Assembly: GCA_045592745.1 (NCBI GenBank)
Contig: JAZNVH010000010.1
Location: 92,783-156,782 of the forward strand
Length of the DNA: 64,000 bases
Reading direction: 5' to 3'
Source: Candidatus Aphodoplasma sp.
Lineage (GTDB): Bacteria > Bacillota > Clostridia > UBA1381 > UMGS1253
The translations under genes were made by a program, and so were the position numbers. Below, piece by piece: positions 2,475-36,989 of the stretch. Position 1 is the stretch's first letter. Each line of letters starts with the position of its first letter. The notes below the pieces were generated by a model that made no database searches, had not been told where the DNA came from, and worked only from the letters and a program-made list of their open reading frames with translations.

Positions 2475-4553
2475 TCACTTTACAAGTCTTGGCACCTGCC
2501 AGCTGTCTTCACTGCGCTCGGGAGCACCTTCTAAGAGGCTCTCACGCGTGAACGGCTGATGGCGGACATCTTCGCGCAGTACATTTGTCATAGGCATAAC
2601 ATGTACCATGGGTTCAACATTTTCTGTATCTATCGTAGAAAGAATTTTTTCTTTTTCGCTCATAGCGGCAAAAATTTTCTGAACCTTATTTTCTTCTTCG
2701 CCTGAAAGGGCGATCTGGTTTAGCTGCTGTGCATTAGAAAATGTCGAGCGCTTGCTCATAGATGATTTACCTGTGTTTGATGGGCCTGATGCACGCTGCG
2801 CGAGTGCGTTTGTATTTCCCAAAAGGTGAACATCTTCAAGCTGTTGATTTGATACAAAGCTTGGCGCACCTAAAAGAAGGTCCTGAGCGTTGCCGTTTAG
2901 AGGGAATGCAATAACGTCTAAAATCTTTTCTTCATCGGTTAACAGCATTACCATTCTGTCGATACCGGGCGCCATACCTGCATGAGGCGGAGCACCGTAT
3001 TGGAATGCTGTATAAAGAGCATTAAAACGCTTTTTAAGCTCTTCCTCTGGATAACCTGCAATTTCAAATGCTTTTTTCATGATGTCTATATCATGGTTAC
3101 GAACAGCGCCCGATGCAAGCTCTATGCCGTTACCAACAAGGTCATACTGATATGCCAGAATTTCGGTAGGGTCTTTTGTAAGAAGAGCATCCATACCGCC
3201 CTGGGGCATAGAAAATGGGTTGTGTGTAAAGATTATTTCGCCTGTATCCTCGTCTTCTTCGTACATCGGGAAGTCTACAACGAAGCAGAACTCGAATGCA
3301 TCTTCGTTAATCAAATCAAGCTGTTCTTTTTTAGCAAGCCATGTGCGTATAAGTCCTGCTTTTTTCTCGGTATCATTCTTTTTATCATCACAGATAAAGA
3401 ACAGTGTTTCGCCTTCTTTTACACCTGTTAATTCAATTATTTCTTCTTTTTGTGCGTCACTTAAGAACTTGGCGATAGGACCTGCAAATATGCCATCTTT
3501 TAAAGTGATATATCCAAGACCGCCAAGACCAACCTCAAGAGATGTTGCATATTTTAAAGAATCCTCAAAGAATTTTTTTGATTTGCCCTGACAGTTTGCC
3601 ACGATTCCGCGCACGGGCTTACCCTTAAAAGCGGGGAAGTCAACGCCAGAAAAGAAATCTGTCAAATCACAGATGATAAGTGGATTTCGAAGGTCAGGCT
3701 TATCAGAGCCGTAATACATCATCGCATCGGCATATGTTATGCGGCGAAACGGCTTTGGTGTAACCTTTTTATCGGAAAATGTTTTAAATGTATCATAGAT
3801 TAAATCTTCGCAAACATCCAAAACTTCTTCTTGCGTAGCAAACGCCATTTCAAAGTCGAGCTGATAAAACTCACCGGGAGAACGATCAGCGCGGGCATCT
3901 TCGTCACGGAAGCACGGAGCAACCTGAAAATATCTGTCAAAGCCCGACACCATCAAAAGCTGTTTAAACTGCTGCGGTGCCTGCGGAAGTGCGTAAAATT
4001 TGCCCGGATGCTTACGGCTTGGTACCAAAAAGTCTCTGGCGCCTTCCGGAGAAGAAGCAGTCAAAATCGGAGTCTGCATATCCAAAAAGCCTTTTTCCTC
4101 CATTTTGTTTCTCAAATGGCGGATAATCTTTGAGCGTTTTACCAAATTATCATGGTTTTTTGGATTACGCAAATCAAGATAGCGGTATTTTAAACGAAGC
4201 TCATCCTTGCTCAGTCTTGAAGTGCGCACATCAAAAGGCAGATTATTAAGACTTTTGCCTAAAATTTCAAGAGTGTCTGCTACAAGTTCTACATTACCTG
4301 TATCAAGCTTGTAGTTTACGGTTTCTTCGTCACGCTTGCTTACGATACCTGTAACAGAAATAACTGTTTCGCGGTTTACATCCTTTACAAGCTTGTCATC
4401 ATGGATGACCACCTGTGTTACGCCTGTGTAATCACGAAGGTCGATAAAAATAACACCACCGTGGTCACGCACAACGTCAACCCAACCGGCAAGTGAAACA
4501 GTTTTGCCGATGTGCTCATCACGTATGTCATTACAATATAGGGTTCTATACAT
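2475..4553 (-). CDS. aspS: Aspartyl-tRNA synthetase (non-discriminating type) fused to a C-terminal GatC-like domain
   Basis: AspRS motifs RDHGGVIFIDLRD, LPQAPQQFKQLLM, CFRDEDARADR.PGEFYQLD, GAPPHAGMAPGIDR. After about residue 585 comes a Ser/Gly/Asn linker, then a GatC-like tail (IDTENVEPMVHV..TNVLREDV...LLEGAPERSEDSWQVPRLVK). Confidence 0.95.
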   Translation of the reverse strand: MYRTLYCNDIRDEHIGKTVSLAGWVDVVRDHGGVIFIDLRDYTGVTQVVIHDDKLVKDVNRETVISVTGIVSKRDEETVNYKLDTGNVELVADTLEILGKSLNNLPFDVRTSRLSKDELRLKYRYLDLRNPKNHDNLVKRSKIIRHLRNKMEEKGFLDMQTPILTASSPEGARDFLVPSRKHPGKFYALPQAPQQFKQLLMVSGFDRYFQVAPCFRDEDARADRSPGEFYQLDFEMAFATQEEVLDVCEDLIYDTFKTFSDKKVTPKPFRRITYADAMMYYGSDKPDLRNPLIICDLTDFFSGVDFPAFKGKPVRGIVANCQGKSKKFFEDSLKYATSLEVGLGGLGYITLKDGIFAGPIAKFLSDAQKEEIIELTGVKEGETLFFICDDKKNDTEKKAGLIRTWLAKKEQLDLINEDAFEFCFVVDFPMYEEDEDTGEIIFTHNPFSMPQGGMDALLTKDPTEILAYQYDLVGNGIELASGAVRNHDIDIMKKAFEIAGYPEEELKKRFNALYTAFQYGAPPHAGMAPGIDRMVMLLTDEEKILDVIAFPLNGNAQDLLLGAPSFVSNQQLEDVHLLGNTNALAQRASGPSNTGKSSMSKRSTFSNAQQLNQIALSGEEENKVQKIFAAMSEKEKILSTIDTENVEPMVHVMPMTNVLREDVRHQPFTRESLLEGAPERSEDSWQVPRLVK

Positions 4554-5117: not shown

Positions 5118-5783
5118 ATGTATAAACTTGAAACACATTGTCATACAGGTGAGGTAAGCGTTTGCGGTAAGGTTAGCGCAAACGATATTGTAGAGGCATA
5201 TATAAAGGCGGGGTACAGCGGTATAGTTATAACCGACCATTTTAACAGAAGGACATTTCTTGAAAAGCCTGAGCTTAAGACGAGCGAAATTGCAGACTAT
5301 TTTCTTACGGGCTACAGAGCAGCGCGCGAAGCGGCAAATGGCAGAATAGATGTGTTTTTGGGTATGGAGCTTACATTTTATGAAAATGATAATGACTATT
5401 TGGTATACGGTATGACAGAAAAGTTTATAAAGAAAAACCCTAACCTTATGGATATGGGTATTGAGCGTTTTTCAAAGCTTGCGCATGATAATAAAATGAT
5501 AATTTTTCAGGCTCATCCGTTCAGGAATCACATGTGCGTCATAAATCCGTCATTACTCGATGGGTATGAGGTGTTTAATGCGAATGCACGCCATGATTCA
5601 AGAAATGATATTGCACAGATGTGGGCAGAAAAATTTGGCAAGTCAATGAGCAGCGGTTCGGATTATCATCGTCTGGAAGATGTAGCAAGAGGCGGCATTA
5701 TAACGAGCAAAAAAATAACGAACAACACTATGCTCAAGGATGCACTTTTAGGAAACGATAAGGACCTTATAAAAATTATTTGA
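5118..5783 (+). CDS. PHP-domain metal-dependent phosphoesterase
   Basis: ETHCHT, ITDH, QAHPFR and SGSDYH PHP motifs. ATG 5118 follows GGGAGAGG. Confidence 0.85.
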   Translation: MYKLETHCHTGEVSVCGKVSANDIVEAYIKAGYSGIVITDHFNRRTFLEKPELKTSEIADYFLTGYRAAREAANGRIDVFLGMELTFYENDNDYLVYGMTEKFIKKNPNLMDMGIERFSKLAHDNKMIIFQAHPFRNHMCVINPSLLDGYEVFNANARHDSRNDIAQMWAEKFGKSMSSGSDYHRLEDVARGGIITSKKITNNTMLKDALLGNDKDLIKII

Positions 5784-24080: not shown

Positions 24081-24722
24081 TTACATAAGCTCATCAAAGC
24101 TGAGTATATACATATCAGCCGTTTTTATTATTTTATCCGTATCTTTTTTTGAGTACTCCTCATGCACGCCTATGGTATAAAAGCCGGCGCTCTTTGCACT
24201 GTTTATACCTGAAAAAATATCTTCAAATACAACGCATTTTTCGGGTGCTATACCGAGCTTTTGTGCAGTGAGAAGATAAATATCAGGAAAATCTTTTCCA
24301 CGCGAAACCTCATCTGCATGCGTAATAGCATCAAATAAATCATATATGCCAAGATTTTTTAGTGCAGGCACATAAATTTCGGGATCAGATGCCGTCGCTA
24401 TACCGAGTTTTATACCTTGCTTTTTAAGGTTATGTAAATACTCATGCGCACCGGGCTTCATATTTACGTTGCTCTTATATTCTTTTAATGCGAGCATATT
24501 CCATTCTTTTATCAAATCCTGTGGTGTGTCGGACAAAGAAAAACGCTCAATAGTATACTCCGCTGTTTGAATGACGCCCATTGGGTTAATTATATCCATA
24601 TAATCATCGGGCACGTCAATTCCGCGGCGTCCAAGAAAATTTTTATCAACCTCGTCCCATACCCATAACGAATCGAGCAGTGTTCCGTCTAAATCAAAAA
24701 TTGCGCCTTCAAAATCTTTCAT
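24081..24722 (-). CDS. HAD-family phosphatase
   Basis: FDLDGTLLDS, GKDFPDIY and VFED motifs. Confidence 0.9.
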   Translation of the reverse strand: MKDFEGAIFDLDGTLLDSLWVWDEVDKNFLGRRGIDVPDDYMDIINPMGVIQTAEYTIERFSLSDTPQDLIKEWNMLALKEYKSNVNMKPGAHEYLHNLKKQGIKLGIATASDPEIYVPALKNLGIYDLFDAITHADEVSRGKDFPDIYLLTAQKLGIAPEKCVVFEDIFSGINSAKSAGFYTIGVHEEYSKKDTDKIIKTADMYILSFDELM

Positions 24723-24800
24723 TATTTTACTCCTGTTTGTAAATCTGTATTTAATAATTATAATAACACATTTTTCTTTGTTTGTGAATACGCTTTTTAT

Positions 24801-24835
24801 AAAAAAACACAGATGGTCTTAGCCATCTGTGTTTT
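24801..24835 (-). terminator. Intrinsic terminator after uxuAB
   Basis: AAAACACAGATGG/CCATCTGTGTTTT stem with a U-tract on the - strand. Confidence 0.75.
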
Positions 24836-24854
24836 CTATGCTTAAAAATATTTT

Positions 24855-25697
24855 TTATACACCTGAATATGCTGAGAAGCCACCATCAACGGGAATTACA
24901 ACACCTGTAACAAAAGCTGACTGTTCATTGTCAACAAGATACAAAAGTGTGCCAAGAAGATCCTCGGGTACACCAAAACGCTTCATTGGTGTTGCGTTTA
25001 AAATCTTGTGTGAACGCTCAGTATAGCTGCCGTCTTCATTTGTAAGAAGAGACTTGTTCTGCGCTGTAAGGAAGAATCCCGGTGCGATTGCGTTTACACG
25101 AATTCCTGTCTTGGCAAAGTGTACTGCAAGCCACTGTGTAAAGTTTGATATAGCAGCTTTTGCACCCGAGTATGCGGGTATTCTTGTAAGCGGACAAAAC
25201 GCATTCATTGATGAAACGTTAAGAATAATACCGTCTTCGTTTCTTGCCATATCCTCTGCAAAAACCTGAGTCGGAAGCAGTGTTCCAAGGAAGTTTAGGT
25301 CAAATACAAAACGGATTCCGTCGGGGTCTAAATCAAAGAATGATTTTACAGCCTCGTCATCTATATCACCCGGCTCGTATGTGTCTTTTTGTGTAGAGCC
25401 TTTGGGATTGTTTCCGCCGGCACCATTTATAAGAACATCAACCTTACCAAGCTTTTCGTTTATTATCTTTTTTGCTTCTACCAAAGAATCGCGAACTAAA
25501 ACATTACATCCGACTGCGATTGCGTTTCCACCGTTTTTGTTTATTTCTTCTGCAACATTTGCTGCAGCCTGCTCATTTAAGTCAAGCAGTGCAATTTTTG
25601 CGCCGCACTCGCCGAGTGCTTTTGCAAATTCACTGCACAAGATACCGCCTGCGCCTGTTACAACGCAAACCTTGCCACTTAAATCAATCTTTCTCAT
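24855..25697 (-). CDS. uxuB: D-mannonate oxidoreductase (SDR family)
   Basis: [34 protein letters not shown] (YxxxK); overlaps the uxuA stop (ATGA). Confidence 0.85.
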
Positions 25698-26749
25698 GCT
25701 TTGATACCGTCCTTTGCATTTTTGTCAATTGCTTCCCAAAGGCCGTTTATATAAGTTGCACCAAGTGCTCTGTCGAAAAGACCATAACCCGGGCGGCCTT
25801 TTTCACCCCAGATCATACGACCGTGGTCGGGACGCACATACATATCAAAGCCTATTTCATGCATTGCTTTCATAATTTCATACATATCAAGTGAACCGCA
25901 GGAAGAAAGATGAGCTGCTTCTTCAAAGCAATGATCATCTGTGATTTTAATGTTACGAAGGTGAATAAAGTGTGCTCTTTCGCCATATTTGCGGATAATT
26001 GCCGGCAAATCATTTGCGGGTGATGCTCCAAGGCTGCCTGTGCAAACTGTGAAACCATTGTTGATGCTTGGACAGATTTTAATCATCTTATCATAGCTGT
26101 CAGCACCTGTGATTATGCGCGGAAGTCCGAAAATCGGCCACGGCGGGTCATCGGGGTGGATTGCCATTTTCATATCTACCTCGTCGCATACCGGAATGAT
26201 GGCGTTAAGGAAGTATGCAAAGTTTTCCCAAAGCTTGTCTGCGTCAATATCTTTATACTCGTCCAAAAGCTTGTTAAGACCATCTTTTGTATAGCTTGAA
26301 TCCCAGCCGGGAAGTGACAAATCCGATGTGCGCGGATTCATAGCGTCAACCTCTGCCTGTCTGAAGATAAGCGCGCTTGAATTGTCGTCAAGCTTGTAAT
26401 CAAGGTCTGAACGGAGCCAGTCAAATACAGGCATAAAGTTATAGCAGATAACCTTTATACCATATTTTGCAAGATTTCTTATTGTCTGGCAATAATTAGC
26501 AAGATATCTGTCGCGCGAAGGCTTTCCGAGCTTGATATCCTCGTGTACAGGAACACTTTCAATTACGTCGAGCTTGAGTCCTGCATTTTCAACCTTTTTT
26601 ACCAACGCAGCAATGCTGCCTTCGTCCCACACTTCGCCAACAGGGATATCGTAAATTGCGCTTACGATAGAATACATGCCTGGAATCTGGCGTATGTACT
26701 CGAGTGTTACCGGGTCAGAATCGCCATACCAGCGAAATGACATTTTCAT
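25694..26749 (-). CDS. uxuA: Mannonate dehydratase
   Basis: [39 protein letters not shown] and [11 protein letters not shown]. Confidence 0.96.
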
Positions 26750-26910
26750 AATAATTTCACGAACCTTTCTGTCTAATATTGTTTGAATTACTTTATATAT
26801 GTACGCATGTGCGCCATAATACTTTTTTATATTGTTTTAGTGAACTGCACTCATATTATCCTATATCTATAATACAAAAATTGATTTTATCCATAAATTG
26901 TTCTCTCTTT

Positions 26911-26939
26911 ATTTTACAATATAAATCAAATAGTTTCAA
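26911..26939 (-). promoter_or_regulatory. SigA-type promoter for uxuAB, flanked by 13-bp direct repeats
   Basis: TTGAAA-17 nt-TAAAAT on the - strand; ATATTATCCTATA at 26853-26865 and 26985-26997. Confidence 0.6.
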
Positions 26940-27037
26940 GTACTTTATTTAAAGAATTATATGCAAGAGTAAAAGCGTTAAGATATATTATCCTATAAAT
27001 GATTAATTCTACAATTTTTGATGTTGTTTTTATAAAG

Positions 27038-27071
27038 AAATAGCTGCTGAAATATCATCAGCAGCTATTTT
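27038..27071 (-). terminator. Intrinsic terminator after rhaB
   Basis: AAATAGCTGCTGA/TCAGCAGCTATTT stem. Confidence 0.75.
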
Positions 27072-27094
27072 GAATTAAAAAACTTTACATATAC

Positions 27095-28549
27095 TTATTT
27101 GCATATTTCGATGTACTTTTCGTATGCCTTATCCCACAAATCCATATCCTGAGGCTCGTAACGAACGAGGTTATACGAATTTTCAACAACCTCGCGCGCA
27201 GCTTCAAGCGAATTAATCTCGCCAAGCGCCACATACTGCATAAGTGCGTTTCCTATGCTTGTAGCTTCTACCGGACCTGCAATTACTGGAATTTTTGTCG
27301 CATTTGCAATAAACTGACAAAGTATCTTACTCTGTGTGCCACCGCCAACAGCGTGGATTGCTTCGATTTTTTCCGGAAGCATTGTCGAAATCTCTTTTAC
27401 AGATTTTGCACACTCAAGTGCAAGACTTTCAATAATTGTGCGGTTAAGCTCGCCAAGTGTTTCGGGCTTATTTTGATTTGTCATTTTGGCAAATTTTTCA
27501 ATACGGGCTACCATATCGCCGGGGCGTGAGAATGCATCATAATTAGGATTGATAATGCATTTAAACGGCTCAGCCTTTACTGCAGCATCCTCAAGTTCTT
27601 GATATGAAACTGTGGTGCCTTTGCGTGCAAGTGCACGACGGCTTTCCTGCTGAATCCAGAGTCCCATTATATTATGAAGGAAACGATATGTTCCAAAAAC
27701 GCCTCCCTCGTTTGTATAGTTATAAGACTGACTCTGCTCGGTTATAATAGGCTCTGTTGTTTCAGCGCCGAGCAGTAGCCATGTTCCGCAGCTTATATAT
27801 AAATTCTTGTTTGGATTTTTCATCGGTGCGGCAACAACCGCGGATGCTGTATCATGAGATGCAACAGCAATCACAGGAACGCTTTCTACACCAAGCTCTT
27901 CGCATATTTCATCGCTTAGATTGCCGATAATACTGCCGGGCATTACGATGTCTGCAAATTTGTTATCAAGGTCAAAGCTTTTCAAAAGCTCATTATCAAA
28001 ATCACGTGATTTTGCATTAAGCATCTGACTTGTTGATGCAATTGTGTACTCTGTTTTTTTCACGCCTGTAAGCATATAGTTAAACAGGTCGGGAATAAAG
28101 AGGGCGCTGTCAGCTGCGGCAAAAACGGGTTCCTTTGCAGAACACATATACTGGAAAAGTGTGTTGATAAAAGCAAACTGTATACCGGTTTTATCAAAGA
28201 TATTTTGCTTTTGCTCATCTGTAAGAACTATTGCATCGGTACGTGTATCGCGGTAGTGATACGGATTTTGCAAAAGGCGACCGTCTTTGTCAAGAAGACC
28301 ATAATCAACGCCCCATGTGTCTATACCGATAGCACCAAATTTTTTGCCTGCATTTTTACATTTTAAAATGCCCTGTTTGATTTCGTGAAAAAGTCTTAAC
28401 ACATCCCAGTGATAGTTTCCGCGAACCATTACGGGGTCATTATCAAAACGGTGAATTTCCTCATAGGTAAGCTTGCCGTTTTCATAAGAGAAAATCAGCG
28501 CACGTCCGCTTGAGGCACCAAAGTCAAATGCGAGAACATTTTTACTCAT
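27095..28549 (-). CDS. rhaB: Rhamnulokinase (FGGY family)
   Basis: AFDFGASSGR, GIDTWGVDYGL, VASHDTASA, YISCGTW and HAVGGG; downstream of rhaA. Confidence 0.9.
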   Translation of the reverse strand: MSKNVLAFDFGASSGRALIFSYENGKLTYEEIHRFDNDPVMVRGNYHWDVLRLFHEIKQGILKCKNAGKKFGAIGIDTWGVDYGLLDKDGRLLQNPYHYRDTRTDAIVLTDEQKQNIFDKTGIQFAFINTLFQYMCSAKEPVFAAADSALFIPDLFNYMLTGVKKTEYTIASTSQMLNAKSRDFDNELLKSFDLDNKFADIVMPGSIIGNLSDEICEELGVESVPVIAVASHDTASAVVAAPMKNPNKNLYISCGTWLLLGAETTEPIITEQSQSYNYTNEGGVFGTYRFLHNIMGLWIQQESRRALARKGTTVSYQELEDAAVKAEPFKCIINPNYDAFSRPGDMVARIEKFAKMTNQNKPETLGELNRTIIESLALECAKSVKEISTMLPEKIEAIHAVGGGTQSKILCQFIANATKIPVIAGPVEATSIGNALMQYVALGEINSLEAAREVVENSYNLVRYEPQDMDLWDKAYEKYIEICK

Positions 28550-28605
28550 AGAGTTTTCTTCCTTTCTACCGCTTGTGTGCGTTTTGATTTATATAAAAGT
28601 AAGAT

Positions 28606-29841
28606 TTATCTTTTTGAAAGAACGTCTTTTTCGTACTTTTTAACCTCGCCGAGCCATTCAAGTGAGCCGGGTACGTTTGCGCGATTTAAGAACTCATCCC
28701 ATACAGCGCTCCATGGCATAGCCTTCATTTCTTCCATAAGAGCAAGGCGTGATGAATAGTCACCATTCTTCTCGATATCAAACAATGTCTTTGTAGGCTC
28801 CAAAAGACCCATAAGAATTGCTTTTTGTGTATTTCTTATACCAATTACCCATGCAGCAATACGGTTAATGCTTGCATCGAAGAAATCAAGACCGATATAT
28901 ACTTTATTAAACAAGTCGTGTCTTGCAATTTCGCTCATAATGCGCATAAGCTCGTCATCTAATACTACAACGTGGTCACTGTCCCAACGTACAGGACGGC
29001 TTGTATGAAGAAGTATACCGGGCACATAATCAATTATACCTGTGATTTTATCTGACACATACTCTGTGGGATGGAAGTGGCCTGTATCAAGAGTAAGAAG
29101 TGTCTGATTTTTTACAGCGTAGCCTGTATAGAACTCGTGTGAGCCTACTGTATAGCTTTCTGCGCCAATACCGAAAACTTTACTTTCAACAGAATCAAGA
29201 TTGTAAGGAGTCTTCTTTGCAAATACTTTATCAAGTGAATCTGCAAGTCTTTGTCTGTATATGTATCTGTTTGCGGGAGTATCTTTAAAGCCGTCGGGAA
29301 TCCACACGTTTGTTACGGCTTTGCTATCAAGCTTTTTGCCGATGTTATCAGCAATTTCTCTCATAGCGATACAATGCTCAACCCAGAAATCTCTGATGCC
29401 GTCATCGAGGCTTGAAAGTGTAAAACCGTCAGCCTTTGGATGTGCAAAAAGTGTTGGGTTAAAATCAAGACCTATACCTTCGCTCTGTGCAAACTCGAGC
29501 CAGTTTTCAAAATGCTCGGGCAAAAGGTTGTTACGCTCAACCACCTTGCCGTTTGTTTCTGCATAATTTGCATGAAGGCTTATGCGGTGCTTACCACCGA
29601 TGAGTGAAAACACCTTTTTGATATCCTCGCGAAGCTCTGATGGAGTTGTTGCTTTGCCCGGATAATTACCGGTAGCTGCAATACCTCCTGAAAGCTCGTT
29701 CTGAGAAACCTCGAAGCCATCAATATCATCGCCCTGCCAGCAGTGTACTGATATAGGTGTGTTAAATAATTTTTCAATTGCCGCCTCGGTATCTACTCCG
29801 ATTTCGGCATATTTTTGTTTTGCTAATTCGTACATAGTCAT
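28606..29841 (-). CDS. rhaA: L-rhamnose isomerase
   Basis: SVHCWQGDD, TGNYPG, VWIPDG, ESKVFGIG.ESYTVGSHEF, LDTGHFHPTE and RPVRWDSDH. Start ATG 29841 behind GGAGG. Confidence 0.95.
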   Translation of the reverse strand: MTMYELAKQKYAEIGVDTEAAIEKLFNTPISVHCWQGDDIDGFEVSQNELSGGIAATGNYPGKATTPSELREDIKKVFSLIGGKHRISLHANYAETNGKVVERNNLLPEHFENWLEFAQSEGIGLDFNPTLFAHPKADGFTLSSLDDGIRDFWVEHCIAMREIADNIGKKLDSKAVTNVWIPDGFKDTPANRYIYRQRLADSLDKVFAKKTPYNLDSVESKVFGIGAESYTVGSHEFYTGYAVKNQTLLTLDTGHFHPTEYVSDKITGIIDYVPGILLHTSRPVRWDSDHVVVLDDELMRIMSEIARHDLFNKVYIGLDFFDASINRIAAWVIGIRNTQKAILMGLLEPTKTLFDIEKNGDYSSRLALMEEMKAMPWSAVWDEFLNRANVPGSLEWLGEVKKYEKDVLSKR

Positions 29842-29881
29842 AATAATTGCCTCCTTAGTAGTTTTTAATAATAACATAAAT

Positions 29882-29910
29882 ATTTTACCATATAAATAAA
29901 AAATAGACAA
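29882..29910 (-). promoter_or_regulatory. SigA-type promoter for rhaAB
   Basis: TTGTCT-17 nt-TAAAAT on the - strand. Confidence 0.6.
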
Positions 29911-29978: not shown

Positions 29979-30007
29979 TTGACAAAAAAAAAGTAATATG
30001 ATATATT
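29979..30007 (+). promoter_or_regulatory. SigA-type promoter for the Leu T-box operon
   Basis: TTGACA-17 nt-TATATT with TG extension. Confidence 0.7.
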
Positions 30008-30021
30008 TACTCCATTATCAC

Positions 30022-30299
30022 ATAAACGCAGTGATGCGGAATAGTAGGCAAAATACTTTCGCCAAAAGAGAGATGCCGGTTGGTGCAAGGCATTGGGAAA
30101 GATTTGCCGAACTCACCGCGGAGCGGCTGCCGTGAAATGTTTGGAGAGTAGGGGCAGACGGGAACTCCCGTAACAGAGTAAAGATGTGTTGGCATCTTGA
30201 GGGCATCCTTTGTGGATGAAGAAGAGTGGTACCGCGGAAGCAAAAAAGGATTTTACGCTTTCGTCTCTTTGAATAAACGAAGAGACGAAAGCTTTTTTT
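30022..30299 (+). promoter_or_regulatory. Leucine T-box riboswitch (specifier CUC)
   Basis: Stem I with AGUA/GAA loop E, AGAGAG bulge, GGTGCAAG loop and GAA-CTC-A at 30109-30115. T-box AGAGTGGTACCGCG at 30223-30236. Terminator GCTTTCGTCTCT/AGAGACGAAAGC plus T7 (30257-30299). The UGGU bulge matches the A73 discriminator of tRNA-Leu. Confidence 0.95.
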
Positions 30300-30353
30300 G
30301 TAAATTGAAAAAGCTTTGGGAAATGAGCTTTGAAAGGGAAGGGGTTTTATCCA

Positions 30354-31742
30354 ATGAGAAAAATCAACGTATCGGACATTACATTAAAAAAACTGGCACA
30401 AACAAGAGAGGTTGCACTGCTATTTCGTGAAAAGACAGCGATTGCTGCGTGCGCAGACGCTCTCGGCGTAGATGCTATTGAACTTGCGGCAATTAAAAAT
30501 TTGCGTGAAGATACTATCGTTTATAAAACGATTGCAAAAAATATTCAAAAAAGTATTGTTGCAATTCCGGTTGGTTTTTCTTTTGATGACGTGGCAAATG
30601 CGTGGGAATGTGTAAAGGAAGCCGCAAAACCGAGACTGCAGGTAGAAGTGCCCACATCAACAGTTCAGATGGAGTATATGTATCATCTTAAAGCAGACAA
30701 AATGATAGCAAAAATCGCCGAGCTTGTTACAGAAGCGAAAAAGCTTTGTGATGATGTAGAGCTTGTTGCAACTGATGCTACACGTGCTGATGAAGAGTTT
30801 TTGATTGAAGCTGCAAAGACAGCCGAACAAAATGGCGCAAAGATTATTACAATCTGTGACGATGCGGGTGTGGCTTTGCCTGAGGAAATTGCAGAGCTTG
30901 TTTCTAAAGTAAAGCAGGCTGTAAATGCAGATGTTTATGTGCAGGTATCAGACAGTATCGGTATGGCAGTATCGGCGGCGGTATCTGCAATCGGAGCGGG
31001 CGCAGATGGACTAAAATGTGCAATGGCAGGAGAAGATTCGCTTTCTATGGGCGCTTTGGCAAAAATGGTTTCAGCACGCGGAGATGCGATTGGCGCTTCG
31101 GTAGCTTTGGAGAATACAAAAATTCACGCAAGTATCGAGGATATGCTTTCTAAAATCAATCATGCAGGATATGAAAGTGCAGATGACGTTAGCGAGAAAA
31201 AGAAGATTTTGCTTGATGAGGATAGTACACTTTCTGATGTGGCATATGCGGCAAATGTGCTTGGTTATGATTTGTCCGACGAGGATAATGGAAAGGTTTA
31301 TAAGGCACTTATGCAGGTTTGTGAGAAGAAAGGCTCTGTCGGAGTAAAAGAATTTGAAGCACTTATTGCAAGCAGTGCAATGCAGGCACCGTCAACATAT
31401 CATTTTGAAAGCTATTCGACAAGTTGTGGTAATTTAACAAGTGCAATGTCACAGGTAACGCTAAGATGCGGTGATGAAATTCTTTGCGGTGTAAGCACGG
31501 GCGACGGTCCGATTGATTCGGTATTTCGTGCAATAGAGCAAAGCATAGGATATCATTATGAGCTTGACGATTTCCAGATTCAGTCGGTAACAGATGGCAA
31601 GGAAGCGCTTGGCTCTGCCTTGGTAAAGCTTCGCGTAGGCGGCAAGCTCTATTCAGGTAACGGCAGCTCTACTGATATTGTTGCAGCAAGTATAAGAGCA
31701 TACATAAATGCGCTTAACAAGATTGTGTTTGAGGAGGCGTAA
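30354..31742 (+). CDS. LeuA (2-isopropylmalate synthase)-like pseudoenzyme with intact C-terminal regulatory domain
   Basis: Colinear with LeuA (AAKPRLQV, LCDDVEL..TDATR, GDGPIDSVF.AI, SGNGSSTDIVAASIRAYINALNK), but LRDGEQ reads LKKLAQ and HCHND reads QVSDS. Start ATG 30354 behind GAAGGGG. Confidence 0.88.
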   Translation: MRKINVSDITLKKLAQTREVALLFREKTAIAACADALGVDAIELAAIKNLREDTIVYKTIAKNIQKSIVAIPVGFSFDDVANAWECVKEAAKPRLQVEVPTSTVQMEYMYHLKADKMIAKIAELVTEAKKLCDDVELVATDATRADEEFLIEAAKTAEQNGAKIITICDDAGVALPEEIAELVSKVKQAVNADVYVQVSDSIGMAVSAAVSAIGAGADGLKCAMAGEDSLSMGALAKMVSARGDAIGASVALENTKIHASIEDMLSKINHAGYESADDVSEKKKILLDEDSTLSDVAYAANVLGYDLSDEDNGKVYKALMQVCEKKGSVGVKEFEALIASSAMQAPSTYHFESYSTSCGNLTSAMSQVTLRCGDEILCGVSTGDGPIDSVFRAIEQSIGYHYELDDFQIQSVTDGKEALGSALVKLRVGGKLYSGNGSSTDIVAASIRAYINALNKIVFEEA

Positions 31743-31744
31743 GG

Positions 31745-34204
31745 ATGAAACTGACCTTTTCTACAAAAAACGTAAACAGGGCATCGTTTTTTGATACCTG
31801 CCGTTATGCATACGATTACGGATATGCAGGTTTTGAAATTTATGATGCAATTAAAGAGAGAAAACAACACTATGACAGCATTCTTCGAAGTGAACGCACA
31901 GCAGACTCAAAAAGAAAGCTTTTTAACCGTGGACTTAACGTTTCTGCATTGGTGTATCCGTATCCGATAGAAAGTAGCGAAGCGACACCTGAATCTGTTG
32001 TAAAATATGTTGATATGGCGACAAATGCGGGAATTGAGCGCGTTATTTTGCGTATCGAGGAAAAGACTTCAAACGATGTGCTTTATGAAAAACTCAGTGA
32101 GGCTGTCAAAAAAGCCGGAAAGGCTGATGTTCAGATATTGTTTGAAACATCGGGCTATCTTGCAAAAACTGAGAATGTAATTGATATTATAAACTTTTTT
32201 TCATCTGCGGCAATAGGTGTTTCGTGGAATACGCGTGAAACGTATTTTAAAGCGGGCGAGAGTGCAGACACAACCATTAAAACACTTGGCGCGTATATAA
32301 AATATGTGCGTCTTGGTGATATGAAAGATGGCAAAAGCGTCTTAATCGGTGAGGGAGAGCTTCCTGTTACAAATGTTATTAATGCGCTTTCTTCACTTAA
32401 TTTTGACGGATATATTTGCGTGGCGTGGAATGAAGAAATTCAGGATGCTGACATTGTACTTACGCATTTCACAAATTATATTGCTGGACTTTCTCGAAAG
32501 AAAAAAGAAAAAGACGGTGCATATTATAATCGCTCAAAGACGGGTACATTTGTATGGAAAAAATACGATGTTATTGATGCAACTTTTTCCGATGTGCTTG
32601 ATACGATGGTTGAAAAGTACCCTGACCAGTATGCGTTTAAATATACAACGCTTGATTACACAAGAACGTATTCGCAGTTTCGCCGTGATGTAGATGAATG
32701 TGCGGCGGCACTTATATCGCTTGGCGTAAAGGCGGGCGACCAGGTTGCTATATGGGCGACGAATGTGCCGGCGTGGTTTATTACCTTTTGGGCAACGACA
32801 AAAATCGGCGCAGTACTCGTTACAGTTAATACCGCATATAAAATTCATGAGATTGAATATCTTTTAAAGCAGTCGGATACGCATACGCTTGTTATGATTG
32901 AGGATTGTAAGGATATTAATTATATAGAAATTATCGAGGAGCTTTGTCCCGAACTTAAAAGCATAAATCCAGGAGAGCCGCTTTATTCAAAAAATCTTCC
33001 GTTCCTGCGAAATGTAGTTACAGTCGGTTTTTCAATGGATGGATGTCTTACATGGGAACAGATGCTTGAGCGTTCTGCACTTGTGCCTCAGCAGGAGGTG
33101 CGTCGCAGAGCCTCGCTTGTAAAGCCCGACGATGTTTGTAATATGCAATATACATCGGGCACTACGGGATTTCCAAAGGGCGTAATGCTTACGCACAGAA
33201 ACATTGTCAACAACGGAAAAACCATTGGTGACAGAATGGATTTGTCAACAGCAGACCGTATGATGATTCAGGTGCCGATGTTCCATTGTTTTGGTATGGT
33301 GCTTTCCATGACATCAATGATGACACATGGCGGTACACTTTGTCCAATGCCATATTTTTCGCCAAAGTCATCACTTGCATGTGTAAACGATGAACACATA
33401 ACCTGCTTTAATGGTGTACCGACTATGTTTATAGCAATGTTTAACCATGCCGATTTTGCAAAGACGGACTTTTCGTATATGCGTACGGGAATTATGGCGG
33501 GAGCAAACTGTCCGGCAGATTTGATGCGTCGTGCGGCAGATGAGATGAATATGCGTGAGATTATTTCTGTATATGGTCAGACCGAGGCTTCGCCCGGATG
33601 CACAATGGGTGAGGTAAACGAAGATCTTGACCACAGAGTTGAAACTGTTGGAAGTGCATTTCCCGGTGTTGAATGTAAGATTATTGACCCTGAAACAGGC
33701 GAGGAACTACCCGATGGTGAGAGCGGCGAATTTGTTGCGCGTGGCTTTAACATTATGAAGGGCTATTATAAAATGCCTGAAGCAACTGCACAGACAATTG
33801 ACGCAGACGGATGGCTTCATTCGGGAGATATTTGCTGTAGAACAAGCGATGGATATTATAAGGTTACAGGACGTCTTAAAGATATGATTATTCGTGGAGG
33901 CGAAAATCTTTACCCGCGTGAGATAGAGGAGTTTTATCTTACACACCCGAAGGTGCGCGACGTGCAGGTAGTAGGTGTGCCTGACGAAAAGTACGGCGAA
34001 GAGTGCTGTGCGTGGATTATTCTTCATAAAGGTGAAGAGTCTGATGAAAACGAGATGCGCGAGTATGGTAATGCTTCTATTGCACGCCACAAAGTGCCAA
34101 AGTACTTTGTATTTGTTAAAGAATTTCCAATGAACGCTGCAGGCAAAATTCTAAAATATAAGATGCGTGATGAGTCAGTGGAGATTTTAGGATTAAAAAA
34201 GTAA
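31745..34204 (+). CDS. Fusion: degenerate xylose-isomerase-like TIM barrel plus AMP-forming acyl-CoA synthetase
   Basis: The N-terminal ~255 aa follow the sugar-phosphate isomerase/epimerase pattern (YAGFEI, LIGEGELP, FDGYI). The C-terminal part has intact ANL motifs YTSGTTGFPKG, YGQTE, WLHSGD, GRLKDMIIRGGEN and AGKILK. Confidence 0.9.
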   Translation: MKLTFSTKNVNRASFFDTCRYAYDYGYAGFEIYDAIKERKQHYDSILRSERTADSKRKLFNRGLNVSALVYPYPIESSEATPESVVKYVDMATNAGIERVILRIEEKTSNDVLYEKLSEAVKKAGKADVQILFETSGYLAKTENVIDIINFFSSAAIGVSWNTRETYFKAGESADTTIKTLGAYIKYVRLGDMKDGKSVLIGEGELPVTNVINALSSLNFDGYICVAWNEEIQDADIVLTHFTNYIAGLSRKKKEKDGAYYNRSKTGTFVWKKYDVIDATFSDVLDTMVEKYPDQYAFKYTTLDYTRTYSQFRRDVDECAAALISLGVKAGDQVAIWATNVPAWFITFWATTKIGAVLVTVNTAYKIHEIEYLLKQSDTHTLVMIEDCKDINYIEIIEELCPELKSINPGEPLYSKNLPFLRNVVTVGFSMDGCLTWEQMLERSALVPQQEVRRRASLVKPDDVCNMQYTSGTTGFPKGVMLTHRNIVNNGKTIGDRMDLSTADRMMIQVPMFHCFGMVLSMTSMMTHGGTLCPMPYFSPKSSLACVNDEHITCFNGVPTMFIAMFNHADFAKTDFSYMRTGIMAGANCPADLMRRAADEMNMREIISVYGQTEASPGCTMGEVNEDLDHRVETVGSAFPGVECKIIDPETGEELPDGESGEFVARGFNIMKGYYKMPEATAQTIDADGWLHSGDICCRTSDGYYKVTGRLKDMIIRGGENLYPREIEEFYLTHPKVRDVQVVGVPDEKYGEECCAWIILHKGEESDENEMREYGNASIARHKVPKYFVFVKEFPMNAAGKILKYKMRDESVEILGLKK

Positions 34205-34213
34205 ATTAAGCAT

Positions 34214-34247
34214 AAAAAAACTGTTCACTTTTGTGAACAGGTTTTTT
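34214..34247. terminator. Bidirectional intrinsic terminator (acyl-CoA ligase / rnj)
   Basis: A7-CTGTTCAC-TTTT-GTGAACAG-G-T6. Confidence 0.85.
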
Positions 34248-36170: not shown

Positions 36171-36989
36171 TTATCGAAATTGTGAGCAAAGCTTGTCATA
36201 GCAAGCCTTCACTTGTGGTATTTTATAGCCCTTTTTATCTGTTATTTCAAAAGGTATAGGTCCTGTATATCCTGATTTTAAAAGAAGTGAAAAAATCGTT
36301 TTCCAGTCATTTATGCCCTCATAAGGAAGCCAGTGTCTTTCGTCAGTGCGATCATAATCACTTACGTGTATAGTAATGATTCTGTCGCCAAAAGCTTTTA
36401 TAAAAGCCTCATTTGTATCTGTAAGAAGATGGTTTGTATCAAAGCATATACGGAGTCTTAAATCGGACGAAACAATTTTTGCCATACTGTCAATATTATT
36501 GCCAAGACATGTGCGGGGCAAATTCTCCACCGCGATTTGTGCACCGAATTTTTCTGCTTCATCTGCAAGCTTTCTCAAAGATGCTTTTGCATTTTCCGTT
36601 TGAATAAATCTGTTTTCTGGCAAAATCGGCTCAAACGAAGGATGAACTACAAATATTTTTATATCTGTGTTCTGGCACACAAAACGAATCATATCAAGCT
36701 GACGCTCAATTGCATTTTGACGAATATTTTTGTCAAGCGAAGCAATATCATACGGATCCCAAAAAGAAAGATGTGCTGACCAAAGCTTGATACCTGTTTT
36801 TTTGCACGAATCAATAAGGCGTAGCCAGTAGTCCTGTATTACTTTATTTTCCATGCCGGGACATGCACCGCCAATTGAGAGTTCTAACATTTCAATTCCG
36901 TTATCTTTGCACTCTTTTAGCACCTCATAATCGGGTGATGGTAAAAATGCGCTTGAAAGTGCAAGCGGATTATTTGAAAGCTTTATCAT
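36171..36989 (-). CDS. Sugar-phosphate isomerase/epimerase (xylose isomerase-like TIM barrel)
   Basis: Intact metal ligands ENLP, FDTNH, HVSD and FE. Confidence 0.85.
   Translation of the reverse strand: MIKLSNNPLALSSAFLPSPDYEVLKECKDNGIEMLELSIGGACPGMENKVIQDYWLRLIDSCKKTGIKLWSAHLSFWDPYDIASLDKNIRQNAIERQLDMIRFVCQNTDIKIFVVHPSFEPILPENRFIQTENAKASLRKLADEAEKFGAQIAVENLPRTCLGNNIDSMAKIVSSDLRLRICFDTNHLLTDTNEAFIKAFGDRIITIHVSDYDRTDERHWLPYEGINDWKTIFSLLLKSGYTGPIPFEITDKKGYKIPQVKACYDKLCSQFR

Follow-up and report, generated by a model that had tools for sequence, protein, structure and literature searches.

An apparently non-catalytic LeuA paralogue, paired with an acyl-CoA ligase behind a leucine T-box in gut Clostridia, as a putative leucine-sensing partner in isovalerate salvage

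The locus described here lies in a 64,000-nucleotide stretch of DNA from Candidatus Aphodoplasma sp. (contig JAZNVH010000010.1), hereafter called the window. It is composed of a T-box leader with a leucine specifier and of a two-gene operon. The first gene encodes a protein that resembles LeuA, the 2-isopropylmalate synthase (IPMS), and that has lost the catalytic motifs of this enzyme while its C-terminal regulatory domain is kept under strong purifying selection. The second, hereafter TIM-ACS, encodes a TIM barrel fused to an acyl-CoA synthetase (ACS). The features of the locus are the following.

29979-30007, + strand: predicted sigma-70-type promoter (TTGACA, 17-nt spacer, TG-TATATT), from a consensus scan (11/12, plus the extended -10 TG)
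30022-30271, + strand: T-box leader, RF00230 (Rfam 131.5 bits, gathering threshold 93, E=5.7e-29, full model 1-219)
30112-30114, + strand: specifier codon CUC (Leu), from the Rfam alignment, within GAA-CUC-A at 30109-30115 of the specifier loop
30224-30237, + strand: conserved T-box sequence GAGUGGUACCGCGG, from the Rfam alignment, with UGGU at 30227-30230 as the pairing site for the tRNA acceptor end
30257-30299, + strand: intrinsic terminator from a terminator scan, a 15-bp stem at 30257-30292 followed by a T-run, overlapping the 3' half of the antiterminator region
30336-30344, + strand: ribosome-binding site GGGAAGGGG, 9 nt 5' of the ATG, read from the sequence
30354-31742, + strand: LeuA-like pseudoenzyme gene, 462 residues plus stop
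30354-31043, + strand: degenerate DRE-TIM barrel, residues 1-230 (HMGL-like match, motif losses, Foldseek, omega 0.088)
31044-31253, + strand: shortened, poorly conserved linker, residues 231-300 (alignment with canonical LeuA, omega 0.10)
31254-31739, + strand: LeuA allosteric domain (LeuA_dimer, PF08502), residues 301-462 (Pfam 100 bits, omega 0.025)
31745-34204, + strand: TIM-ACS gene, 819 residues plus stop, starting 2 nt past the stop of the LeuA-like gene (Pfam AP_endonuc_2, AMP-binding and AMP-binding_C)
31745-32509, + strand: N-terminal xylose-isomerase-like TIM barrel of TIM-ACS, residues 1-255 (AP_endonuc_2, 51 bits, residues 20-230)
32540-34201, + strand: acyl-CoA synthetase domain of TIM-ACS, residues 266-819 (AMP-binding at residues 288-675, AMP-binding_C at residues 726-801)
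34221-34240, both strands: bidirectional terminator hairpin from the terminator scan, at the end of the two-gene operon and common to it and to the convergent gene of RNase J

The open reading frame found mechanically for the LeuA-like gene spans 30330-31742 (+). The ATG at 30354 is nevertheless the likelier start, because GGGAAGGGG lies upstream of it and homologues open with MRK or MKK at the same point. The original prediction for this gene, an intact frame at 30354-31742, is thus confirmed, and the product has 462 residues.

The catalytic motifs were compared with those of the solved LeuA catalytic domains 3ewb, 3rmj and 3eeg and of three canonical database LeuAs. The canonical DTTLRDGEQ reads DITLKKLAQ, with loss of the substrate-binding Arg, the metal-binding Asp and the Glu; (S)VHCH(N/D)DLG reads YVQVSDSIG, without the metal-binding HxH; NG(I/L)GERAGN, after strand 8, is reduced to A----GEDSL by a four-residue deletion; about 36 residues of accessory subdomain I, including GIHQDG, are deleted; and LGKHSG reads LLDEDS. 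In IPMS of M. tuberculosis, mutation of R80 or E218 abolishes activity. Catalysis by that enzyme also requires its accessory domain, which bears His379 and Tyr410 (PMC9860122). Retained are the ancestral barrel residues D8, T10, S102, D141, R144 and D169 and, in the C-terminal part, GDGPIDS (residues 383-389), EALGSALVKL and the glycine-rich stretch GNGSSTDIVAASIRAYINALN. The alignments thus agree with the original prediction both on the loss of every catalytic motif (LRDGEQ, HCHND, GIGERAGN, GIHQDG, LGKHSG) and on the persistence of the C-terminal ones (GDGPIDS, ALG..LVKL and the glycine-rich stretch).

The fold itself appears to be preserved. The AlphaFold model has a predicted local distance difference test score (pLDDT) of 89.5, with values below 50 at residues 270-283 of the linker, and its barrel is superposed by Foldseek on the three LeuA catalytic domains at 1.6-2.0 Å (1.6 Å for 3ewb). 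The short bacterial LeuAs of Neisseria meningitidis (3rmj) and Listeria monocytogenes (3ewb), at a root-mean-square deviation of 1.6-1.8 Å, are the closest known systems: they have the same DRE-TIM barrel and share the C-terminal PF08502 domain with its glycine-rich motifs. The LeuA-like protein differs from them by the absence of the Arg, Asp and Glu of LRDGEQ, of HxH, of GERAGN and of the subdomain I with the catalytic His, by being about 40 residues shorter, and by a gene that adjoins an acyl-CoA ligase and not leuBCD. Taken together, the alignments and the model support a LeuA paralogue that has kept the fold and would be catalytically dead.

Profile searches give a strong HMGL-like match (113.6 bits, residues 4-226), although a weak one had been predicted, and the strong LeuA_dimer match that had been expected (100 bits, residues 332-457). 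On the other hand, the best IPMS equivalog model of NCBIfam yields 255 bits where its cutoff is 532, the protein reaches less than half of every IPMS cutoff, and all the isopropylmalate, citramalate and homocitrate synthase models of NCBIfam are far under their curated cutoffs. If the protein were a working synthase of 2-isopropylmalate or citramalate whose active site is unusual, this would account for the two strong Pfam matches, and also for the leucine T-box, a control found on true leucine biosynthesis genes. Such an enzyme is nonetheless highly improbable, given these model scores, the absence of the metal ligands and catalytic residues, the deletion of subdomain I, and the fact that no leuBCD genes are seen in about 90 loci carrying members of the family. 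The isolated C-terminal part (residues 300-462) matches seven IPMS models, the best being NF002086 (131.5 bits). As barrel and regulatory domain are each best matched by this same model, the LeuA-like protein descends from a whole LeuA.

The LeuA-like protein belongs to a large family. At least 120 relatives at 73% identity or more are found among the matches listed by a word-index search, in Oscillospiraceae, Ruminococcaceae and other Clostridia metagenome-assembled genomes (MAGs), and the close relatives that are named in databases are labelled "hypothetical protein". An exhaustive search of representatives at 50% identity gives about 120 full-length clusters (450-490 residues, 30-50% identity to the query), which rank above the first canonical LeuAs (about 500-516 residues). 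None of these roughly 120 representatives has LRDGEQ, HxH(N/D)D or G(I/L)GERxGN, while GDGP(I/V)D is present in nearly all of them. When 105 members are aligned, His is not among the six most frequent residues at either metal-His position, and the metal-Asp position is occupied by E, Q, K, N or D, none of them above 16%. The substrate-Arg position of LRDGEQ is R in 31% of the family, and the GERAGN remnant, GEDSL in the LeuA-like protein, varies across it. Where the three canonical LeuAs are invariant, the majority residue of the family is the same as theirs at 40% of the barrel positions, at 7% of those in the linker and at 77% of those in the regulatory domain. The hosts are Clostridia of the ruminant and other animal gut (Acutalibacteraceae, Christensenellaceae, Oscillospiraceae and one Lachnospiraceae bin), and parts of the locus are present in DNA metagenome runs.

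Selection was quantified as the ratio of nonsynonymous to synonymous substitution rates (dN/dS, omega; Nei-Gojobori, 60 orthologue pairs at 88-96% amino-acid identity, medians). Omega is 0.088 for the barrel, 0.103 for the linker and 0.025 for the regulatory domain, on which constraint is thus three to four times as strong as elsewhere in the protein; the mean pairwise p-distances are 0.36, 0.49 and 0.22, respectively. Selection is therefore purifying throughout, and not neutral. The loss of catalytic motifs is the sole argument for a decaying pseudogene or an annotation artefact, which is scarcely credible in view of the intact frame, the hundreds of orthologues, omega values of 0.02-0.10 and a confident fold prediction; the measured purifying selection refutes it. 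With more than 100 clusters at 50% identity and these low omega values, the LeuA-like protein is functional and not a relic, and its allosteric domain is its most constrained part. Both the working synthase and the pseudogene can be considered as effectively excluded.

Several apparent fusions of LeuA_dimer to TGT, response-regulator receiver, MFS and 7TMR-HDED fragments (P0221, P0241-P0263) were also considered and rejected. Their partner domains are truncated, and they are most likely chimeras that metagenome assembly produced in the regulatory domain, where the DNA is very conserved.

The conservation of the barrel deserves separate consideration. Fourteen barrel positions are at least 90% conserved, Met1 excluded: D8, T10, F24, P100, S102, E107, Y108, K113, D141, A142, R144, G161, D169 and P176. 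Ten of them (D8, T10, P100, S102, E107, Y108, D141, A142, R144 and D169) lie at or just past the C-terminal ends of beta1, beta4, beta5 and beta6, which is the old active-site face. One possibility is thus that the barrel has been neofunctionalised, either for another, metal-independent activity or for tight ligand binding on this face, with the leucine domain regulating it; it might for example act on, or hold, isovaleryl-CoA or ketoisocaproate. The low barrel omega, the gathering of the most conserved residues, and four positions (P100, E107, Y108 and K113) that are conserved in the family and not in the three canonical LeuAs are in favour of this possibility. So is the presence, among the fold matches, of DRE-TIM barrels that work with CoA-dependent partners, such as DmpG/DmpF. 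However, the three metal ligands, the substrate Arg and Thr and the His of the accessory domain are replaced by variable residues and not by a new fixed set. Furthermore, most of the conserved barrel residues (9/14) are inherited from LeuA, and mean conservation is alike on the two barrel faces (0.49 vs 0.47), so that it is only the most conserved residues that gather on the old catalytic one. A neofunctionalised or ligand-binding barrel is therefore the strongest rival to the sensor function proposed below, and we regard it as unlikely.

The regulatory domain carries two invariant glycine-rich motifs. G383-D-G385-P386-x-D388 (GDGPID, residues 383-388) stands at the N-terminus of helix 386-398 of the model, and G435-x-G437-x-S439-T-D441 (GxGSSTD, residues 435-441) at that of helix 442-461. 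In IPMS of M. tuberculosis, the leucine carboxylate sits between the N-termini of two helices (PMC11057210), and the PF08502 domain of citramalate synthase is a ligand-recognition module even outside the enzyme, with isoleucine as its ligand (PMC13381585). It is thus plausible, judging from these motifs, that the retained domain acts as an amino-acid sensor. The original prediction of an enzyme repurposed as such a sensor holds in one respect, that of a dead LeuA paralogue keeping its allosteric domain. As a pure sensor it is incomplete, as neither the operon partner nor the constrained barrel has a place in it.

The leader that precedes the LeuA-like gene is the sole Rfam element of the window, in which no tRNA gene is found. 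In the Firmicutes, ilv-leu and leuS are under T-box control, and the specifier of the ilv-leu leader of B. subtilis is CUC. The LeuA-like operon has likewise a CUC specifier, a UGGU acceptor-pairing site and a terminator/antiterminator switch, and differs in that the genes controlled encode a pseudoenzyme and an acyl-CoA ligase, and not a tRNA synthetase, a classical biosynthetic enzyme or a transporter. An orthologous locus with unrelated flanks has the same arrangement of T-box and genes and the same CUC, CUC also stands in the specifier register of five leader types of divergent sequence (L010, L056, L072, L019 and L068), and the T-box core motif, which is AGUGGUACC in these leaders and not GGUGGUACC, precedes the gene in 67 of 77 orthologous loci. 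An automatic read gives CUC in 60 loci, with the limit that such a read can catch the GAGC of the distal loop and return a spurious "GGT"; the Ile, Val and Phe specifiers mentioned below were checked in Rfam alignments. T-box leaders allow read-through when the cognate tRNA is uncharged. Given the leucine specifier and this established mechanism, the operon would be switched on by uncharged tRNA-Leu, and so by leucine shortage; the same specifier makes leucine the candidate ligand of the regulatory domain.

The association with TIM-ACS was assessed in 80 GTDB genome loci (L002-L081) and L001, that is 81 loci. TIM-ACS follows the LeuA-like gene in 81/81, in every case with downstream sequence, and it also follows distant family members at 30-43% identity. 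Conversely, the three TIM-ACS proteins used for a reverse search all have a LeuA-like gene directly upstream (3/3), one of them in a bin labelled Spirochaetales. Across loci, the genes of the pair overlap or are separated by 2 nt, and they are probably translationally coupled.

The partner protein, which databases label "AMP-binding protein", combines a complete ligase with an atypical barrel. Its ligase part scores 318.5 bits for AMP-binding and 62 bits for AMP-binding_C in Pfam, and its identity between loci is 88-95%, against 60-77% for the LeuA-like protein of the same loci; the p-distances, averaged over pairs, are 0.115 for the ligase domain and 0.34 for the TIM domain. The latter is an orphan AP_endonuc_2 subfamily present only in these fusions, since its 161 database hits are all fragments of them. 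Its model (pLDDT 93.9) has as best fold match a UlaE-type epimerase (template-modelling score, TM, 0.8; 16% identity). The Glu-Asp-His-Glu metal tetrad would read, by motif position, E134, N162, R189 and N229/E231, and HVHAHD of MJ1311 aligns to YVRLGD. A second xylose-isomerase-like TIM barrel is encoded in the window between RNase J and PolC:

36171-36989, - strand: canonical AP_endonuc_2 protein, 271 residues (110.8 bits)

The 51 bits of the TIM domain of the partner, compared with this score, mark it as atypical.

The neighbourhoods of the 81 loci were compared by clustering the flanking open reading frames, followed by Pfam scans. In 10 of these loci, an IlvE-type class IV aminotransferase, a CbiA-like P-loop protein and 2-oxoacid:ferredoxin oxidoreductase subunits (alpha, beta and, in some, gamma) are encoded on the same strand as the pair, in three different arrangements. 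These neighbours are downstream of the pair in L003-L006 and upstream of it in L056, L062, L066, L069 and L029. Among distant family members, L082 has the order pair, IlvE, P-loop protein, ferredoxin (Fer4) subunit, while L083 has a ligase gene fused to helix-turn-helix (HTH) and cupin domains (HTH-cupin-ACS), then P-loop protein, ferredoxin (Fer4), alpha, beta and gamma subunits, and finally the pair; L084 also has neighbours of the aminotransferase, P-loop and oxidoreductase type. In 25 of the 81 loci, a gene of about 269 residues with an Amidohydro_2 domain (PF04909) lies directly 3' of TIM-ACS (e.g. L062, 9860-10669, +). Such a gene is also observed just before the pair in L067, L073 and L089 (3284-4075).

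Further ligase genes adjoin the pair in 37 loci, and these have T-boxes of their own, with other specifiers. A Cupin_2-ACS fusion of about 757 residues stands behind a T-box that reads AUC (Ile) in the same register. An HTH_19-Cupin_2-ACS fusion stands behind one that reads GUA (Val), with an Rfam score of 78 bits, below gathering, and E=2e-17. In a few loci, a PaaK-type ligase and a 143-residue protein with a pair of ACT domains stand behind one that reads UUC (Phe), directly upstream of the leucine module. Their coordinates are as follows.

L019, 2943-5216, - strand: Cupin_2-ACS, with its T-box at 5294-5530 (-); also in L009 (10153-12465, +), L075, L078 and L068
L019, 267-2708, - strand: HTH_19-Cupin_2-ACS, with its T-box at 2615-2862 (-); also in 11 further loci, e.g. 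L023, L033 and L049
L040, 3781-5097 and 5119-5550, + strand: PaaK-type ligase and ACT protein, respectively, with their T-box at 3477-3726; also in L035, L058 and L061

Acid-activating ligases would so be wired singly to Leu, Ile, Val and Phe starvation in these organisms. The fusion of a DNA-binding domain to an adenylate-forming enzyme recalls the enzyme/repressor design of BirA. The PaaK-ACT module is possibly the phenylacetate-to-phenylalanine counterpart of the leucine module, with an amino-acid-binding protein of its own. A close paralogy of the cupin ligases with TIM-ACS was considered and rejected: they are 63% identical to each other and their ligase domains only about 25% identical to that of TIM-ACS, and they form a separate lineage.

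The specifiers of these T-boxes bear on the identity of the ligand. The LeuA-derived domain could bind isoleucine, valine, ketoisocaproate or isovalerate instead of leucine, as the PF08502 domain of citramalate synthase does for isoleucine (PMC13381585), and 12 positions of the regulatory domain are conserved in the family and not in the three canonical LeuAs. We nevertheless hold a ligand other than leucine to be quite improbable. The isolated domain matches IPMS models and, in the profile scan, no citramalate synthase model; the operon carries the leucine CUC T-box in five leader types; and the Ile and Val T-boxes found in the same loci drive other ligase genes.

The close pairing of the two genes also raises the possibility that the LeuA-like protein is a scaffold, which would bridge the ligase to the 2-oxoacid:ferredoxin oxidoreductase for channelling, or stabilise the ligase, without sensing leucine, its C-terminal domain serving for dimerisation only. 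PF08502 is, as its Pfam name indicates, also the dimerisation domain of LeuA, pairing is near-obligate with probable translational coupling, and oxidoreductase genes are nearby in several lineages. However, the helix-capping, glycine-rich motifs at the leucine-carboxylate site of IPMS are invariant down to 30% identity, and the degree of constraint on the regulatory domain is more than dimerisation alone requires. Moreover, what accompanies the ligase in the Phe module is an ACT protein, a bona fide binder of amino acids. A mere scaffold thus appears improbable.

All our results, considered together, lead us to favour, tentatively and at a little short of even confidence, a LeuA-like protein that is devoid of catalysis and senses leucine for its partner, a ligase activating isovalerate for leucine salvage. 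When leucine is short, uncharged tRNA-Leu would be read by the T-box and the pair would be transcribed. The ligase would then turn isovalerate into isovaleryl-CoA, spending ATP; a ferredoxin-dependent 2-oxoacid oxidoreductase would carboxylate isovaleryl-CoA reductively to 2-ketoisocaproate; and IlvE would transaminate the latter to leucine. The LeuA-like protein would dock on the ligase, probably with its old active-site face on the N-terminal TIM barrel of the ligase. With leucine bound in its C-terminal domain, it would throttle the ligase, just as true LeuA, which opens the de novo route, is inhibited by leucine. Such a protein-level leucine feedback would complement the T-box control, and the ACT protein may play a similar part with the Phe ligase; the Phe ligase and ACT pair has indeed the design that is proposed for leucine, a ligase with a small amino-acid-binding partner. 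We infer leucine binding, the physical complex, the direction of regulation and isovalerate as the substrate. That the route would be anabolic, from isovalerate to leucine, is suggested by the starvation induction, by the irreversible AMP-forming chemistry and by the oxidoreductase and IlvE neighbours.

Several observations weigh against this proposal. As regards the pathway, a homologue search finds no oxidoreductase, IlvE, P-loop or amidohydrolase homologue in the window, and only about 13 of about 90 loci have oxidoreductase or IlvE genes nearby. As regards the substrate, the best NCBIfam match of the ligase is PRK12583, a generic fatty-acid CoA ligase (678 bits, for a cutoff of 832), and the solved structures nearest to it are those of FadD13 and of malonyl-CoA and 4-coumarate ligases. 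The control is not universal either, since at least nine loci are without T-box; in L003-L006, neither a T-box nor another Rfam element is found in the upstream gap of about 570 nt (e.g. L003, 5428-6000). As regards the complex, the distance matrices of the LeuA-like protein and of the TIM domain of the ligase are correlated (r=0.955, and 0.65 after removal of the ACS signal), which may fit co-evolution and constitutes a weak argument, as shared phylogeny inflates r. In L086 (1287-2693, +), the only such case seen, a family member has no ligase downstream. Finally, the barrel of the LeuA-like protein is strongly constrained, with its most conserved residues on the old catalytic face, two properties that a pure sensor does not need.

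The proposed arrangement has precedents among regulators of amino-acid biosynthesis. HisZ is a paralogue of histidyl-tRNA synthetase that regulates the ATP-phosphoribosyltransferase HisG, and IlvH and IlvN are the ACT-type small subunits of acetohydroxyacid synthase. IlvH is a valine sensor (PMC13381585). In these systems, an inactive or regulatory protein binds the end-product amino acid and controls the first committed enzyme, whose gene it adjoins, and the LeuA-like protein would work alike. As for HisZ, a paralogue devoid of catalytic residues is found here under purifying selection (omega 0.025-0.10), and it co-occurs with, and adjoins, the enzyme to be regulated, with L086 as the one exception. 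The LeuA-like regulator differs in its origin, which is the enzyme that opens the alternative, de novo route to the same amino acid, and in its target, which would be an unrelated, adenylate-forming enzyme. Aldolase-dehydrogenases of the DmpG/DmpF type (1nvm, 4jn6) offer another comparison, as they associate a DRE-TIM barrel and a C-terminal communication domain in a hetero-complex with a CoA-dependent enzyme. DmpG is, however, a true metal-dependent aldolase, and its partner enzyme and chemistry are unrelated to those of the LeuA-like/ligase pair.

The physiology that the pair could serve is an old one. According to the account given in PMC5911377, ruminococci incorporate isovalerate into leucine, as established by labelling (Allison et al., 1962, J Bacteriol 83:523). 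Gut hosts, clusters of ligase, oxidoreductase and IlvE genes, and the predicted induction by starvation all fit with this route and with the 2-oxoisovalerate:ferredoxin oxidoreductases. The route is nevertheless defined by labelling, whereas its link to the pair is drawn purely from genomic context. No gene assignment for the isovalerate activation step was found in the searchable literature. MbcS of Staphylococcus aureus is described, in the title and abstract of its report, as a short branched-chain acyl-CoA synthetase that feeds branched-chain fatty acid synthesis (PMC10026030). By this description, it resembles the ligase of the pair in being an AMP-forming enzyme for short branched-chain carboxylic acids, as is proposed here, and it differs in that neither a TIM-barrel fusion nor a LeuA-like partner is mentioned in that title and abstract.

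Other features of the loci were recorded on the way. In the window, the operon is flanked on one side by rhamnose and hexuronate genes, and on the other by the genes of RNase J, of the canonical AP_endonuc_2 protein and of PolC. The first of these flanks, divergent from the operon, is the following.

24081-29910, - strand: genes for a HAD hydrolase, an SDR protein, the mannonate dehydratase UxuA, an FGGY kinase and RhaA, with no evident link to the leucine module

In L086, the opposite strand carries the genes that come next, which encode RhuM-like, HTH and DUF3990 proteins, in what looks like a mobile-element neighbourhood. Two further RNA elements are found downstream of the pair in other loci.

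L056, 9936-10107, + strand: lysine riboswitch (83 bits), immediately downstream of the pair and followed by dapA-like and lysA-like genes
L077, 11267-11343, + strand: Gut-1 RNA (RF01706, 79 bits), in an Acutalibacteraceae MAG

The four T-box specifiers allow the proposal to be extended, with more reserve than for the leucine pair itself. It is conceivable that gut and rumen Clostridia rebuild amino acids from volatile fatty acids in a modular, T-box-partitioned manner, each entry ligase having its own sensor: the LeuA-derived pseudoenzyme and a degenerate TIM barrel for leucine, a cupin or HTH-cupin domain for isoleucine and valine, and an ACT protein for phenylalanine. The operon would then be the missing gene assignment for the isovalerate route of 1962. 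In the full-text literature that was searched, outside of which most subscription journals lie, we found neither a LeuA-derived pseudoenzyme nor this gene pair described, and no account of fatty-acid ligases under T-box control that serve amino-acid salvage.

For the annotation of genomes, the family sets a large group of proteins, whose present labels are "hypothetical protein" or "AMP-binding protein", apart from true LeuA, which matters when leucine prototrophy is deduced from HMGL-like and LeuA_dimer matches. The strongly conserved LeuA regulatory module is also a possible starting point for a leucine biosensor. If our proposal is true, a complete first-step biosynthetic enzyme has lost catalysis and persists as the subunit through which an unrelated enzyme senses leucine, which would be a clear natural case of regulation by a pseudoenzyme crossing two pathways to the same product. 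Finally, the pair supplies candidates for the genes that carry out activation in the route from branched-chain fatty acids to amino acids. Fibre-degrading anaerobes of the rumen and gut depend on the branched-chain acid route, which is the basis of isoacid feeding to ruminants, and there is a realistic chance that these genes may offer a gene-level account of this old physiological pathway.

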